From: Escherichia coli
Lineage (GTDB): Bacteria; Pseudomonadota; Gammaproteobacteria; Enterobacterales; Enterobacteriaceae
Reading direction: 5' to 3' (one strand)
Length of the DNA: 64,000 nt
Assembly: GCF_003334315.1 (NCBI RefSeq)
Contig: NZ_QOWR01000003.1
Below the pieces are notes generated by a model. That model saw only the letters and a list, made by a program, of their open reading frames with translations, ran no database searches and was not told where the DNA came from. Positions 14,677 through 52,923 of the stretch are shown piece by piece (position 1 is the stretch's first letter; every line of letters begins with the position of its first letter). Made by a program: the position numbers and the translations under genes.

Positions 14677-14790
14677 GGGTGGGGGCCCTGCCAGCTACAT
14701 CCCGGCACACGCGTCATCTGCCTTGGCTGCTTCCTTCCGGACCTGACCTGGTAAACAGAGTAGCGTTGCGGGAGAACCAACAGAGCCCCC
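14677..14790 (-). ncRNA. ffs: 4.5S RNA (SRP RNA, ffs)
   Basis: Reverse complement of 14677..14790 reads GGGGGCTCTGTTGGTTCTCCCGCAACGCTACTCTGTTTACCAGGTCAGGTCCGGAAGGAAGCAGCCAAGGCAGATGACGCGTGTGCCGGGATGTAGCTGGCAGGGCCCCCACC, the E. coli 4.5S RNA; ends are approximate to 1-2 nt. Confidence 0.93.
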
Positions 14791-16985: not shown

Positions 16986-18272
16986 TTACGCGTTATAGGC
17001 ATTCTCGCCGTGGCTGTTGACGTCCAGCCCTTCTCGCTCCTGTTCTTCAGGCACACGCAGGCCAACCGTCAGATCCGCCAGTTTGTAGCCAATAAATGCC
17101 ACCACACCGGACCAGACGATCGTAATGGCAATGCTTTCCAGCTGTACCAGCAACTGATGGCCCATCGTCACACCTTCAGCGAAGCCCACGCCGCCCAGCG
17201 AGCTGGCGGCAAAAATCCCGGTCATGATACAGCCGACAATGCCACAAACGCCGTGCACACCGAAGACATCGCAGGGATCATCCACCCGCAGCAAGCGTTT
17301 GAGCATGGTAACGCCCCACAAGCCCGCCAGACCAGCTACCACGCCGATAATCAACGCGCCGCCAACCCCAATGTAGCCGCAGGCTGGCGTCACGCCGACC
17401 AGACCGGCAATCGCGCCAGAACACGCCCCCAGCAGTGAAGGCTTACCACGCAGCGCCCATTCACCGAAGATCCAGCCAAGAATTGCCGCCGCCGTTGCGA
17501 CCACAGTATTCACAAAAGCCAGTGCCGCGATTTCATTCGCCGTGCCCGCTGACCCGGCGTTAAAGCCAAACCAACCGATATAGAGAATGGCAGTCCCGGT
17601 GAAGACCATCGGCAGGTTGTGCGGTTTAAACGCCTCTTTACCGAAGCCCACACGTTTTCCTATCAGATACGCGCCCACCAGACCGGCGATTGCGGCGTTA
17701 ATGTGCACCACTGTGCCCCCCGCGAAATCCAGTGCACCGTGAGAAGCCAGCAAACCACCGCCCCAGACCATATGCGCAATCGGAATGTAAGAGAGCGTCA
17801 GCCATACCACCACGAAAATCAACACAGCTGAGAAGCGGATTCGTTCCGCCAGCGCCCCAACTATCAAGCCTACGGTAATGCAGGCAAACGATCCCTGAAA
17901 CGCTACGTGGATATACTGATAAATGCTGCCCATCACCGCCGTCAGTTCGATGTTTTTCAGCATCAACCAGTTAATGTTGCCGAAGAAGTTGTTGCCCTCA
18001 CCAAACGCCAGCGAGTAACCGTAAACCACCCAGAGAATACAGACCAGTGCAAATGTCACCGTCACCTGCGTCAGCATCGACAGCACGTTTTTGCCGCGAA
18101 TCAACCCACCGTAAAACAGGGCAATCCCCGGAATAGTCATAAACAGCACCAGCGCAGTACAAATCATCATAAACGCATTGTCGGCTTTATCGGCCACCGC
18201 AGGTGCAGCCATTACCAGTCCCGGCAGCATCGCCAGTGAAGCAAGCCCAGTTTTTATCGTCGCTATCTTCAT
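16986..18272 (-). CDS. amtB: Ammonium transporter AmtB
   Basis: ORF track 16986..18272, 428 aa, signal peptide MKIATIKTGLASLAMLPGLVMA followed by 11 TM helices; downstream of glnK. Confidence 0.95.
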   Translation of the reverse strand: MKIATIKTGLASLAMLPGLVMAAPAVADKADNAFMMICTALVLFMTIPGIALFYGGLIRGKNVLSMLTQVTVTFALVCILWVVYGYSLAFGEGNNFFGNINWLMLKNIELTAVMGSIYQYIHVAFQGSFACITVGLIVGALAERIRFSAVLIFVVVWLTLSYIPIAHMVWGGGLLASHGALDFAGGTVVHINAAIAGLVGAYLIGKRVGFGKEAFKPHNLPMVFTGTAILYIGWFGFNAGSAGTANEIAALAFVNTVVATAAAILGWIFGEWALRGKPSLLGACSGAIAGLVGVTPACGYIGVGGALIIGVVAGLAGLWGVTMLKRLLRVDDPCDVFGVHGVCGIVGCIMTGIFAASSLGGVGFAEGVTMGHQLLVQLESIAITIVWSGVVAFIGYKLADLTVGLRVPEEQEREGLDVNSHGENAYNA

Positions 18273-18301: not shown

Positions 18302-18640
18302 TTACAGCGCCGCTTCGTCGGCTTCGCCGGTACGAATACGAATGACGCGTTGCAATTCAGCGACGAAGATTTTGCCGTCGCCAATTTTTCCGGTGTAAGC
18401 CGCCTTACTGACGATATCGATCACTTCATCGAGTTGGTCATCAGCAATCGCCACATCAATTTTTACTTTTGGCAGGAAGTTGACGCTGTATTCCGCCCCC
18501 CGGTACAGCTCGGCATGCCCTTTCTGACGCCCGAAACCTTTCACTTCGGTGACGGTCAGGCCCTGAATACCAATGGAAGATAACGCTTCACGAACGTCTT
18601 CCAGCTTGAATGGTTTGATTATCACGGTCACCAGCTTCAT
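18302..18640 (-). CDS. glnK: PII nitrogen regulatory protein GlnK
   Basis: ATG at 18640 inside ORF-track entry 18302..18778; MKLVTVIIKPFKLEDVREALSSIGIQGLTVTEVKGFGRQKGH, 112 aa. Confidence 0.95.
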   Translation of the reverse strand: MKLVTVIIKPFKLEDVREALSSIGIQGLTVTEVKGFGRQKGHAELYRGAEYSVNFLPKVKIDVAIADDQLDEVIDIVSKAAYTGKIGDGKIFVAELQRVIRIRTGEADEAAL

Positions 18641-18691
18641 AGATCCCCTCCGGTCAGAATTCGGTAATGGTTCTGCTACACGAAGAAGGTA

Positions 18692-18709
18692 TTGCAAGCG
18701 GTGTGCCAG
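18692..18709 (-). promoter_or_regulatory. Sigma54 (-24/-12) promoter of glnK-amtB
   Basis: Minus strand reads cTGGCACaccgcTTGCAat, a perfect GG-N10-GC element about 50 nt upstream of the glnK ATG. Confidence 0.75.
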
Positions 18710-18760
18710 AAATGAAAAACGAGAAAGAGAGCAGGAAGTTAAGAAGTTTGAAAATGAAAA

Positions 18761-18801
18761 CGCACTATGACAGTGCACAGTGCGTTACATTTTTGCACCA
18801 A
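18761..18801 (-). promoter_or_regulatory. Putative NtrC enhancer-binding region upstream of the glnK sigma54 promoter
   Basis: cgcactatgacagtgcacagtgcg inverted repeats plus a tgcacca half-site, 60-100 bp upstream of the -24/-12 element. Confidence 0.4.
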
Positions 18802-18820
18802 CGATGAAATATTGCGCTAT

Positions 18821-22367
<3,547 letters not shown>

Positions 22368-29995: not shown

Positions 29996-32350
29996 CTATT
30001 TTGCAGTCACAACCTGCATACCAGACGGTTCATTTTGCAGCGCCAGAGTCAGAACTTCCTCAATGCGCTTCACAGGATGAATGTCCAGATCGGCAATTAC
30101 GTTGTCAGGAATCTCTTCCAGATCGCGTTTATTTTCGAACGGAATTAGCACTGTTTTAATCCCGCCGCGATGCGCTGCCAGGAGTTTTTCTTTCAAACCA
30201 CCGATCGGCAGTACCTGACCACGCAGAGTGATCTCACCGGTCATTGCCACATCGGCACGAACCGGGTTACCGGTCAGGCAAGAAACCAGCGCGGTGCACA
30301 TAGCAATACCGGCACTCGGACCATCTTTCGGCGTCGCACCTTCCGGTACGTGGACGTGGATGTCACGTTTTTCGTAAAAATCAGGGTTGATCCCCAGTTT
30401 TTCCGCACGCGCACGAACCACCGTTAACGCCGCCTGAATGGACTCCTGCATCACTTCGCCGAGCGAACCGGTATAGGTCAGTTTGCCTTTACCCGGAACA
30501 CATGCGGTTTCAATGGTCAGCAAGTCACCGCCCACTTCCGTCCACGCCAGACCGGTTACCTGACCGACACGGTTTTCGTTATCAGCGCGACCATAGTCGA
30601 AACGCTGAACACCGAGGTAGTCATGCAGGTTATCGCCGTTAATTTCGATATGTTTTAATGACTTATCGAGCAGTAACTGCTTAACCGCTTTGCGGCACAG
30701 TTTGGAGATTTCACGCTCCAGACCACGCACGCCCGCCTCACGGGTGTAGTAACGAATAATGCCGATAATGGCGCTATCGTCGACGGTCAGCTCACCTTTT
30801 TTCAGTGCATTACGTTCAATCTGCTTCGGCAGCAGGTGACGTTTGGCGATGTTCAGTTTTTCATCTTCGGTATAACCGGAGAGGCGAATCACTTCCATAC
30901 GATCCAGCAGCGGTGCCGGAATGTTCATGGAGTTCGACGTCGCGACAAACATCACGTCGCTGAGATCGTAATCCACTTCCAGGTAGTGGTCGCTGAACGC
31001 TACGTTCTGCTCTGGATCCAGCACTTCAAGCAGTGCGGAGGCCGGATCGCCACGCATGTCAGAAGACATTTTGTCGATCTCATCGAGCAGGAACAGTGGG
31101 TTTTTCACGCCCACTTTCGCCATTTTCTGGATCAGTTTACCCGGCATAGAACCGATGTAAGTACGGCGGTGACCACGGATTTCCGCTTCATCACGCACGC
31201 CGCCCAGCGCCATACGGACATATTTACGCCCGGTGGCTTTGGCAATGGACTGACCAAGAGAGGTTTTACCTACCCCCGGCGGCCCTACCAGGCAGAGGAT
31301 CGGTCCCTTGATTTTGTTGACACGGCTTTGAACCGCAAGATACTCAAGGATTCGATCTTTCACGCGCTCCAGACCATAATGGTCGGTATCAAGGATTTCC
31401 TGCGCCTGACGCAGGTCTTTTTTGACCTTGCTGCGCGCATTCCACGGTACCTGTACCATCCAGTCGATATAACCACGCACTACGGTCGCTTCTGCCGACA
31501 TCGGAGACATCATTTTCAGCTTCTGCAACTCTGCTTCCGCTTTCTCTTTTGCCTCTTTCGGCATCTTCGCCGCGTCGATTTTGCGCTTCAGGGCTTCGTT
31601 TTCGTCCGGCGCGTCGTCCATTTCACCGAGTTCTTTCTGAATAGCTTTCATTTGCTCGTTCAGATAGTACTCACGCTGGGATTTCTCCATCTGCTTTTTA
31701 ACGCGGTTGCGAATGCGTTTCTCAACCTGCAGCAGATCGATTTCCGATTCCATCATTGCCATCAGATATTCCAGACGTTCGTTAACGTCGGACATCTCCA
31801 GAACGGACTGTTTGTCAGCCAGTTTCAGCGGCATATGTGCAGCAATGGTATCCGCCAGACGCGCCGGATCGTCGATGCTATTCAGCGACGTCAGCACTTC
31901 TGGTGGGATTTTTTTGTTCAGCTTGATGTAGCCTTCGAACTGGCTGATTGCAGTACGCACCAGCACTTCCTGTTCCCGCTCATCAATGGTCGGCGACTCC
32001 AGATACTCCGCCTTCGCAGAAAAGTGTTCGCCATTGTCAGAGAGCGCAGAAATACGCGCGCGCTGTAACCCCTCGACCAGCACTTTGACGGTGCCGTCAG
32101 GCAGCTTCAGCATCTGCAATATAGAGGCCACGGTCCCGACGGTGAAAAGATCGTTTACACCCGGCTCATCCGTTGAAGCTTCTTTCTGCGCGACCAGCAT
32201 AATTTTTTTATCATGGTCCATCGCCGCTTCCAGACAACGGATAGATTTTTCCCGCCCGACAAATAAGGGGATGACCATGTGCGGATAAACCACCACATCG
32301 CGCAGCGGCAATACGGGGATTTCAATGCGTTCAGAACGCTCAGGATTCAT
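29996..32350 (-). CDS. lon: ATP-dependent protease Lon
   Basis: ATG at 32350 ([33 protein letters not shown]) inside ORF-track entry 29996..32395; 784 aa; Walker [10 protein letters not shown]; catalytic Ser in PKDGPSAG. Confidence 0.97.
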
Positions 32351-32430
32351 AGAGCTCTCTCTTAGTTTAATTTCCGCCAGGTAATCAGATGACACGATTG
32401 TGCTTCACGCCATCTATTAACATGTACGTC

Positions 32431-32462
32431 AGTATATGGGGATGTTTCCCCCACATTCAACG
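32431..32462 (-). promoter_or_regulatory. Heat-shock (sigma32-type) promoter of lon
   Basis: Minus strand reads cgTTGAAtgtgggggaaacatCCCCATATAct, matching the sigma32 -35 (TTGAA) and -10 (CCCCATnT) consensus, about 80 nt upstream of the lon ATG. Confidence 0.6.
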
Positions 32463-32537
32463 CCGAGAATAGAGGAAAAATTAAAGGGGAGATAAAATCC
32501 CCCCTTTTTGGTTAACTAATTGTATGGGAATGGTTAA

Positions 32538-34561: not shown

Positions 34562-34740
34562 TTCCGTCTCCTGGATAAAATTGAAAAAACCTGCTGTACC
34601 GATTGTAACCTTATGGACGGATTATCAGCTAGTCCCTGTGTTATGGGTACGGCATCACCATATTTCAAGCATAACAATCTTTTGTTGTTACGCTAACACC
34701 GAAAGAGGCTTTTCGCACGGTTCCATGCAAAATTCATGAC

Positions 34741-34772
34741 AAAAAAAAGCCCACCACCTGGCGGTGACGGGC
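34741..34772 (-). terminator. Intrinsic terminator downstream of tig
   Basis: Minus strand reads gcccgtcaccgccaggtggtgggc (10-bp stem with two G-U pairs) followed by tttttttt. Confidence 0.7.
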
Positions 34773-51060: not shown

Positions 51061-52923
51061 ATGAGTTTTGATATTGCCAAATACCCGACCCTGGCACTGG
51101 TCGACTCCACCCAGGAGTTACGACTGTTGCCGAAAGAGAGTTTACCGAAACTCTGCGACGAACTGCGCCGCTATTTACTCGACAGCGTGAGCCGTTCCAG
51201 CGGGCACTTCGCCTCCGGGCTGGGCACGGTCGAACTGACCGTGGCGCTGCACTATGTCTACAACACCCCGTTTGACCAATTGATTTGGGATGTGGGGCAT
51301 CAGGCTTATCCGCATAAAATTTTGACCGGACGCCGCGACAAAATCGGCACCATCCGTCAGAAAGGCGGTCTGCACCCGTTCCCGTGGCGCGGCGAAAGCG
51401 AATATGACGTATTAAGCGTCGGGCATTCATCAACCTCCATCAGTGCCGGAATTGGTATTGCGGTTGCTGCCGAGAAAGAAGGCAAAAATCGCCGCACCGT
51501 CTGTGTAATCGGCGATGGTGCGATTACCGCAGGCATGGCGTTTGAAGCGATGAATCACGCGGGCGATATCCGTCCTGATATGCTGGTGGTTCTCAACGAC
51601 AATGAAATGTCGATTTCCGAAAATGTCGGCGCGCTCAACAACCATCTGGCGCAGCTGCTTTCCGGTAAGCTTTACTCTTCACTGCGCGAAGGCGGGAAAA
51701 AAGTTTTCTCTGGCGTTCCGCCAATTAAAGAGCTGCTCAAACGCACCGAAGAACATATTAAAGGCATGGTAGTGCCTGGCACGTTGTTTGAAGAGCTGGG
51801 CTTTAACTACATCGGCCCGGTTGACGGTCACGATGTGCTGGGGCTTATCACCACGCTTAAGAACATGCGCGACCTGAAAGGCCCGCAGTTCCTGCATATC
51901 ATGACCAAAAAAGGTCGTGGTTATGAACCGGCAGAAAAAGACCCAATCACTTTCCACGCCGTGCCTAAATTTGATCCCTCCAGCGGTTGTTTGCCGAAAA
52001 GTAGCGGCGGTTTGCCGAGCTATTCAAAAATCTTTGGCGACTGGTTGTGCGAAACGGCAGCGAAAGACAACAAGCTGATGGCGATTACTCCGGCGATGCG
52101 TGAAGGTTCCGGCATGGTCGAGTTTTCACGTAAATTCCCGGATCGCTACTTCGACGTGGCAATTGCCGAGCAACACGCGGTGACCTTTGCTGCGGGTCTG
52201 GCGATTGGTGGGTACAAACCCATTGTCGCGATTTACTCCACTTTCCTGCAACGCGCCTATGATCAGGTGCTGCATGACGTGGCGATTCAAAAGCTTCCGG
52301 TCCTGTTCGCCATCGACCGCGCGGGCATTGTTGGTGCTGACGGTCAAACCCATCAGGGTGCTTTTGATCTCTCTTACCTGCGCTGCATACCGGAAATGGT
52401 CATTATGACCCCGAGCGATGAAAACGAATGTCGCCAGATGCTCTATACCGGCTATCACTATAACGATGGCCCGTCAGCGGTGCGCTACCCGCGTGGCAAC
52501 GCGGTCGGCGTGGAACTGACGCCGCTGGAAAAACTACCAATTGGCAAAGGCATTGTGAAGCGTCGTGGCGAGAAACTGGCGATCCTTAACTTTGGTACGC
52601 TGATGCCAGAAGCGGCGAAAGTCGCCGAATCGCTGAACGCCACGCTGGTCGATATGCGTTTTGTGAAACCGCTTGATGAAGCGTTAATTCTGGAAATGGC
52701 CGCCAGCCATGAAGCGCTGGTCACCGTAGAAGAAAACGCCATTATGGGCGGCGCAGGCAGCGGCGTGAACGAAGTGCTGATGGCCCATCGTAAACCAGTA
52801 CCCGTGCTGAACATTGGCCTGCCGGACTTCTTTATTCCGCAAGGAACTCAGGAAGAAATGCGCGCCGAACTCGGCCTCGATGCCGCTGGTATGGAAGCCA
52901 AAATCAAGGCCTGGCTGGCATAA
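51061..52923 (+). CDS. dxs: 1-deoxy-D-xylulose-5-phosphate synthase
   Basis: ORF track 51061..52923, 620 aa, TPP-binding [18 protein letters not shown]. Confidence 0.97.

Follow-up and report, generated by a model that had tools for sequence, protein, structure and literature searches.

A putative mdlAB terminator hairpin overlapping the NtrC site upstream of Escherichia coli glnK-amtB

Introduction

The operon coding for the PII-type signal protein GlnK and the ammonium channel AmtB in E. coli, which is silent until nitrogen starvation, lies directly behind the constitutive mdlAB operon and is read in the same direction. This arrangement raises the question of how one short intergenic spacer can both carry the control elements of the downstream operon and keep it from being expressed by its neighbour, and what part the palindromes found in this spacer play. 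Some of the answer is established. Expression of glnK depends on rpoN, and NtrB phosphorylates NtrC under nitrogen limitation.

The reading of the spacer as a glnK-amtB control region is known biology: it is a textbook sigma-54/NtrC promoter, mapped by ChIP-seq, genomic SELEX (gSELEX) and genetics on identical DNA. The promoter reading itself adds nothing new and shows that such elements are recognisable from sequence. Two further features, namely, the overlap of a terminator-like hairpin with the enhancer and the quantised spacing between enhancer and promoter, are modest additions, tentative or confirmatory in nature.

The glnK-amtB locus and its identity with that of K-12

The stretch of DNA analysed here (the window) comprises 64,000 nucleotides, and all positions refer to it unless stated otherwise. 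Its match to E. coli is 100%, the RefSeq annotation of the matching chromosome gives the order mdlA-mdlB-glnK-amtB, and this locus is carried by 5424 of 5426 complete E. coli genomes. The genes and signals framing the spacer are as follows.

18821..20602, minus strand: mdlB, coding sequence of an SmdB-family ABC exporter (ORF list, RefSeq annotation, NCBIfam NF008056)
180 nt between the mdlB stop codon and glnK, read on the minus strand: mdlB-glnK spacer
18645..18651, minus strand: Shine-Dalgarno sequence of glnK, GGAGGGG (sequence)
18302..18640, minus strand: glnK, coding sequence of the PII-2 signal protein, 112 aa (ORF list, RefSeq annotation)
16986..18272, minus strand: amtB, coding sequence of the ammonium channel (ORF list, RefSeq annotation, NCBIfam NF007947)

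The mdlB gene stands upstream of glnK in the same orientation and ends with the TGA at 18823-18821; its product scores 1184.9 bits against the NCBIfam equivalog NF008056 (SmdB/MdlB, cut-off 746). The glnK gene starts with the ATG at 18640-18638, behind a Shine-Dalgarno sequence that is kept as GGAGGGGATCT in relatives. Its product possesses Tyr51 and reaches 236.8 bits against the GlnK equivalog NF007946 (cut-off 181), the GlnB equivalog remaining below its own cut-off. The amtB gene begins 29 nt after glnK in the same operon, and AmtB scores 880.5 bits against NF007947 (cut-off 657). A GlnK-type PII protein is thus followed by an AmtB ammonium channel, the arrangement that characterises a glnK-amtB operon.

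The 200 bp around the mdlB-glnK spacer are base-for-base identical to E. coli K-12 MG1655, so that published K-12 experiments apply directly and without adjustment. Compared with K-12 glnKp, the spacer, the sigma-54 motif, the 42-nt leader and the NtrC dependence are all the same and nothing differs, this being the same element in another E. coli strain. For a window position w, K-12 coordinates were obtained as U00096.3 = 472598 + (18640 - w) and U00096.2 = 471822 + (18640 - w). The locus is almost certainly the E. coli glnK-amtB control region, with a sigma-54 promoter driven by NtrC; this region is already known and is the same DNA as in K-12. Elsewhere in the window, Rfam matches were obtained for the sRNA sraA (32422-32517, plus strand, 106.7 bits) and for the signal recognition particle RNA ffs (14686-14782, minus strand, 68.1 bits), both as expected for that part of the E. 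coli chromosome.

A sigma-54 promoter upstream of glnK

18693..18709, minus strand: sigma-54 promoter glnKp, CTGGCACACCGCTTGCA, with the -24 GG and the -12 GC (unique perfect match)

A preliminary description of this DNA had placed a TGGCAC-N5-TTGCA element about 50 nt upstream of glnK. It is indeed found on the minus strand at 18708-18693 (TGGCAC at 18708-18703, N5 being ACCGC, and TTGCA at 18697-18693), with its end 52 nt from the ATG at 18640. The element harbours the GG at -24 and the GC at -12 in the fixed spacing of sigma-54 promoters (TGGCAC-N5-TTGCW). Taking C18694 as -12, transcription is predicted to start at about 18682, 42 nt before the glnK ATG, in agreement with the 42-nt distance given in PMC4591121. 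A consensus scan of the mdlB-glnK spacer revealed no sigma-70 promoter.

The exact TGGCAC-N5-TTGCA sequence is unique in the 64 kb whichever strand is read, the expectation being 0.06 matches per window. When one mismatch was allowed, only one further, unrelated site appeared. This sigma-54-like element, TGGCACGTTGTTTGAA (51777-51792, plus strand), is at chance level, with two sites found for 3.5 expected.

At least one perfect match was present in 5 of 100 dinucleotide shuffles of the window, a frequency at which the element upstream of glnK might be taken for a chance match without function. Published binding data on the identical sequence refute this explanation, which we regard as improbable in the extreme. 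In the sigma-54 ChIP-seq study of Bonocora et al. (PMC4591121), peak OS03 is assigned the motif CTGGCACACCGCTTGCA, whose centre has the plus-strand coordinate 471761 and whose predicted start is 42 nt away from glnK; the centre of the 17-mer at 18709-18693 maps to exactly 471761. The same 17-mer, CTGGCACACCGCTTGCA, was recovered by Shimada et al. (PMC8743547) in gSELEX with the RpoN holoenzyme alone, the peak falling in the mdlB>glnK spacer. Binding of the sigma-54 holoenzyme to the identical 17-mer is therefore documented by both ChIP-seq and gSELEX. Furthermore, the element and its distance from glnK are conserved in every relative examined; throughout Enterobacteriaceae it is found 64-71 nt before the ATG.

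Another sigma-54 ChIP-seq motif of PMC4591121 is present in the window. The sequence TTGTCATGAATTTTGCA (34726-34742, minus strand) is identical to OS02, an intergenic motif located upstream of clpP, and lacks a perfect -24 GG.

Palindromes upstream of the promoter

18761..18777, minus strand: candidate main NtrC box, TGCACTGTCATAGTGCG (TGCACT-N5-AGTGCG; core GCAC-N7-GTGC, conservation, consensus)
18781..18810, minus strand: weaker NtrC-like elements further from the promoter, among them the perfect half-site TGGTGCA at 18800-18794 (consensus match, conservation)

The preliminary description also reported dyad repeats 60-100 bp further upstream, with a cgcact...agtgcg pair and a tgcacca half-site. 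Both are present, CGCACT at 18784-18779 and AGTGCG at 18766-18761 on the minus strand, and TGCACCA at 18794-18800 on the plus strand; the distance was roughly right, the elements lying 53-92 bp upstream of the -24 hexamer. The dyad as an NtrC site holds in part: its sequence is there, but the pairing CGCACT-N12-AGTGCG does not have the NtrC spacing. It forms part of a longer inverted repeat (18786-18776 and 18769-18759) with arms of 11 nt that are 91% complementary. The box with NtrC spacing uses the inner left arm instead, reading TGCACT-N5-AGTGCG at 18777-18761, with its centre near -87 relative to the predicted start.

The NtrC consensus TGCACCAnnnTGGTGCA consists of hexamers 5 nt apart (as cited in PMC8743547). 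The candidate box TGCACTGTCATAGTGCG matches it at 10 of the 14 specified positions, with an intact GCAC-N7-GTGC core. A strict search of the 64-kb window for the NtrC 17-mer with at most three mismatches gave five matches, which is chance level, and none in the spacer; it missed the main box because this box has four mismatches. The core GCAC-N7-GTGC was found twice in the window for 1.75 expected, and the gSELEX NtrC core with at most one mismatch 42 times for 40 expected, both at chance frequency. The significance of the NtrC motifs comes from their position, their conservation in relatives and the published binding data, and not from counts alone. The only other GCAC-N7-GTGC in the window, GCACTTTGACGGTGC (32080-32094), is consistent with chance and, by K-12 mapping, is probably located inside a coding region near lon.

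Two overlapping candidates lie further upstream than the main box. The first, ATTTCATCGTTGGTGCA (18810-18794), is centred at about -120, matches the consensus at 8 of 14 positions and contains the TGGTGCA half-site; the second, TGCAAAAATGTAACGCA (18797-18781), is centred at about -107 and matches at 9 of 14. Among 75 distinct orthologous upstream regions, the mean match to TGCACCAnnnTGGTGCA peaks at offsets of -33, -20 and -62 from the main box. A second box, such as would let NtrC assemble into oligomers, may be sought at -20 or -33, where the match in E. coli is weak (9/14 and 8/14, respectively) and includes the perfect half-site, and the register of these NtrC-like elements appears ambiguous between ATTTCATCGTTGGTGCA and TGCAAAAATGTAACGCA. 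The block TGGTGCAA...AACGCA is conserved when loci found through the GlnK protein alone are considered. Full-text literature searches returned no NtrC footprint coordinates for the DNA upstream of glnK, and the exact boxes are for this reason deduced from consensus and conservation. Read in this way, the enhancer would comprise one canonical box at 18777-18761 and weaker elements within 18781-18810.

A close known counterpart, the E. coli glnAp2 enhancer, likewise serves a sigma-54 promoter, which phosphorylated NtrC activates from upstream boxes that share one helical face. Its NtrC sites are centred at -108 and -140 (PMC1865078), i.e., 32 bp apart, a distance resembling the 33 bp by which the element containing TGGTGCA is offset from the main glnK box. 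In contrast to glnAp2, glnK has one good box, the others being weak, and this box lies about two turns closer to the start (-87). Neither the overlapping sigma-70 promoter nor the governor sites described for glnAp2 are present, and the glnK promoter has been called 'simpler' (PMC3870243).

Other arrangements were noticed among the relatives. A third NtrC-like site (e.g., TGCACCAAAATCAGGCG) occurs 62 bp upstream of the main box, directly behind the mdlB stop codon, in Enterobacter, Yersinia and Rahnella (loci L004, L005, L009, L011 and L012). In E. coli, a degenerate palindrome, AGCGCCTGAATAGCGCA (18829-18813, minus strand), is located 52 bp upstream of the main box and overlaps the mdlB stop codon; with 9 of 14 consensus positions by hand count, it is recorded here as a possible third weak box. 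The locus of Klebsiella sp. BIGb0407 (L013) lacks the TGGTGCAA block upstream of glnK, and carries TGCACCGGACTGGATAT 32 bp upstream of the main box, which is the three-turn spacing of the two strong glnAp2 sites.

Dependence of glnK expression on NtrC

That glnK-amtB is activated by NtrC and expressed under nitrogen limitation, as the preliminary description proposed, is supported by published K-12 binding data and genetics on the identical spacer. Comparison with NtrC data sets places NtrC at this locus both in vivo and in vitro: glnK-amtB is peak 1 in the NtrC ChIP-seq of Brown et al. (PMC4066584), and an NtrC gSELEX peak lies inside the mdlB>glnK spacer (Shimada et al., PMC8743547). The reported ChIP-seq interval, 471741-471821, maps to 18721-18641, over the promoter and not over the boxes, and so confirms the locus and not the exact NtrC site. 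In a strain deleted for glnG, glnK mRNA was not detected, and it was back on complementation (PMC4066584). Schumacher et al. (PMC3870243) used glnKp as a reporter depending exclusively on phosphorylated NtrC, and the NtrC-specific activity at this promoter (glnK transcript per NtrC molecule) was about 400-fold higher under ammonium starvation. Occupancy by NtrC and glnG-dependent expression are thus both on record for this very sequence.

It might be argued that the upstream palindromes are not NtrC sites, and that another sigma-54 activator, or no specific upstream site at all, drives the promoter. The chance frequency of NtrC-type motifs in the window and the four mismatches of the main box from the strict consensus would be in line with such a view. 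Against it stand the loss of glnK mRNA on deletion of glnG and its restoration by complementation, the binding of NtrC to the spacer in vivo and in vitro, and the preservation of the box in sequence and helical phase across dozens of lineages. We consider this alternative highly unlikely, and retain NtrC as the activator acting through the upstream boxes.

At this promoter, sigma-54 RNA polymerase waits as a closed complex on CTGGCACACCGCTTGCA (18709-18693), being unable to start on its own. Phosphorylated NtrC assembles on the upstream enhancer, loops to the promoter and opens it with ATP, and transcription from the predicted start at about 18682, 42 nt before glnK, then yields GlnK and AmtB. 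With so short a loop, enhancer and promoter would have to share one helical face.

Conservation of the arrangement and helical phasing

18709..18760, minus strand: pyrimidine-rich spacer of 52 nt separating the main NtrC box from the -24 element (sequence)

With the GlnK protein as query, 79 loci were obtained from reference genomes; they are cited in this text by their L numbers. Among the Enterobacterales loci (L002-L018), L014, from Orbaceae, gave no mdlB match, and in each of the others mdlB is the gene upstream of glnK. A -24/-12 element is present 59-104 nt before the ATG in every Enterobacterales locus, L014 included, and a GCAC-N7-GTGC box stands upstream of it in L002-L018, again except for the Orbaceae locus. 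The same arrangement of box and promoter is encountered in many more distant gamma- and betaproteobacteria.

The phasing of the two elements was analysed in 78 distinct spacers, some supplied by the genome loci and the others by a metagenome scan with the enhancer pattern (L002-L013 and L082 onward), with the distance measured between the first base of the main box and that of TGGCA. The distances fall into six classes, namely, 68-69, 78-79, 89-90, 100-101, 110-112 and 122-124 bp, the shortest of which is that of E. coli and a few non-Escherichia variants. Their best period is 10.8 bp (R = 0.95), and random sets as periodic as the observed one were obtained 0 times in 5000 with 14 distances and once in 5000 with six distances. 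The spacer sequences themselves diverge freely among relatives. The length between enhancer and promoter has therefore changed only by whole helical turns. Such quantised spacing fits an activator held on one face of the helix for short-loop reach, and the six classes with their 10.8-bp period are what a constraint on helical face at short range predicts. Seen in natural enhancer-promoter pairs, it is clean evolutionary evidence in favour of the face-of-the-helix rule, which engineered constructs had made known.

In the E. coli spacer, the 9-mer TTTTCATTT occurs twice on the minus strand, at 18710-18718 and 18752-18760, 42 bp or four helical turns apart. The phased T tracts of the two TTTTCATTT copies, which flank the spacer, could give intrinsic curvature for a tight 87-bp activation loop.

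A terminator-like hairpin sharing an arm with the main NtrC box

18759..18786, minus strand: hairpin AACGCACUGUG-CACUGU-CAUAGUGCGUU, 11 pairs and a 6-nt loop (consensus scan, fold, covariation)
18751..18760, minus strand: T tract TTTTCATTTT, U tract of the putative mdlAB terminator (directly 3' of the hairpin)

The longer inverted repeat invites a second reading. On the sense strand, a consensus scan flagged a terminator-like hairpin that starts 35 nt after the mdlB TGA; it reads AACGCACUGUG-CACUGU-CAUAGUGCGUU and is followed by UUCAUUUUC. The hairpin (18786-18759) contains the CGCACT/AGTGCG dyad and takes its right arm from the right half of the main NtrC box. Directly 3' of it is the T tract TTTTCATTTT, the first two T's of which (18760-18759) double as the last two bases of the stem. 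Folded alone, the hairpin has an energy of -14.9 kcal/mol (z = -4.0), and none of 200 shuffles was as stable. The region thus has a stable, GC-containing sense-strand hairpin past a stop codon, together with a U tract that is interrupted in E. coli and forms a run of eight T's in many relatives.

These observations led us to consider that the dyad (CGCACT...AGTGCG, within AACGCACTGTG / CATAGTGCGTT) might mainly be the intrinsic terminator of mdlAB, overlapping the proximal NtrC box. We lean towards this explanation, as rather probable; it adds to the NtrC reading without replacing it. Besides the position of the hairpin past the mdlB stop and its stability, the presence of mdlB ahead of glnK in every Enterobacterales locus but L014 speaks for a terminator. 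So does the pattern of substitutions in alignment A2, which holds 44 distinct enterobacterial variants: 93% of its cells are paired at the hairpin positions, compared with 25-66% when the partners are slid by 1-3 columns. One pair switches from C-G (34 sequences) to U-A (6 sequences), with one U-G and three broken pairs, and the remaining left-arm changes are for the most part transitions under which G-U pairing is retained. The change from CGCAC to CGCAU (11 sequences) keeps a G-U pair while breaking the GCAC core expected of a protein half-site. This support has its limits, since a single evolutionary event (Escherichia and Citrobacter versus the rest) may lie behind the one covarying pair, and the right arm and TTTT were fixed by the search pattern for metagenome matches.

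The T tract is likewise informative in the loci found through the protein, as 4-8 T's directly follow GTGCG in every such Enterobacteriaceae locus (L002-L008 and L013). The orthologous hairpin of Enterobacter was called by the same terminator scan. Outside the family, the T tract is absent in Yersinia, Rahnella, Acerihabitans and Photorhabdus, and the Yersinia mdlB-glnK spacer has no terminator-like site anywhere, which counts against the terminator reading. Photorhabdus, without the T tract, has its own hairpin after the box, which can be read in its favour: a separate GGGAGAG...CTCTCCT hairpin (L015, 2351-2375) is located directly downstream of the NtrC box, so that terminator-like and activator elements are adjacent there and not merged.

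Several other points weigh on the opposite side. In E. coli the U tract is interrupted (UUUUCAUUUU), and the T tract could instead serve to bend DNA for the short activation loop. RNAalifold, applied to the 44-sequence alignment, favours two small hairpins in place of the 11-bp hairpin, with no covariation. The latter was tentatively preferred here because it is the minimum-energy fold of the region in E. coli and includes the sole covarying pair. No entry for a 3' end of mdlB was found in the searched supplements of PMC7815308, PMC12207403 and PMC6131387, which report E. coli 3' ends or full-length RNA; this is a weak negative, as mdlAB is weakly expressed. A search of the full-text literature gave nothing relevant on a terminator between mdlB and glnK. 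With typical intrinsic terminators, the element shares a GC-containing stem of 11 pairs, a 6-nt loop, a T-rich tail and a location on the sense strand past a stop codon, while it differs from them in that its right arm is also half of an activator site and in the interruption of the E. coli U tract.

Taking hairpin and phasing together, there is an even chance, in our estimation, that one 28-bp palindrome acts both as RNA, in the form of the mdlAB terminator hairpin with its U tract, and as DNA, in the form of the glnK NtrC site, that this dual element is conserved across Enterobacteriaceae, and that the distance between enhancer and promoter has evolved only in whole turns (six classes, about 10.8 bp).

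A CT-rich stretch and the possible shielding of glnK from mdlAB transcription

18682..18689, minus strand: CT-rich stretch CCTTCTTC, 3' of the -12 element and reaching the predicted start (sequence, bioRxiv 10.1101/086108)

A second element that may separate the two operons has been described for glnKp. Levy et al. (bioRxiv 10.1101/086108) observed that glnKp silences a downstream reporter on read-through transcripts, independently of rpoN, and attributed this to an insulator, a 7-nt CT-rich anti-Shine-Dalgarno region centred at -4. The corresponding 7-nt CT-rich stretch, CCTTCTT, is found at 18689-18683, immediately before the predicted start (18682). When the read-through RNA is folded by computation, CCUUCUUC is paired to the Shine-Dalgarno sequence of glnK (GGAGGGG, 18651-18645), and in the fold of an RNA starting at 18682 the Shine-Dalgarno sequence is largely open. 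Over the whole leader, neither the read-through RNA nor the native one exceeds its shuffles in stability (z = 0.4 and 1.3, respectively). These modelled folds are consistent with the anti-Shine-Dalgarno model and are not proof of it.

Two layers of protection can therefore be envisaged. The hairpin and T tract (18786-18751), overlapping the main NtrC box, probably end mdlAB transcripts, as far as can be judged from their features, and the CT-rich anti-Shine-Dalgarno stretch (18689-18682) blocks translation of read-through RNA, an effect demonstrated in published reporter constructs. Together, they appear to keep mdlAB transcription from expressing glnK. If this is true, a hairpin sharing an arm with the activator site and an anti-Shine-Dalgarno insulator would explain how a silent nitrogen-starvation operon is shielded from a constitutive operon upstream.

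Among CT-rich insulators, glnKp is the founding example, and the present sequence has the same CCTTCTT stretch (18689-18683). The work of Levy et al. relied on synthetic read-through constructs and mentions neither a terminator nor mdlB; the hairpin and T tract upstream would add to their insulator a first, transcriptional layer of shielding.
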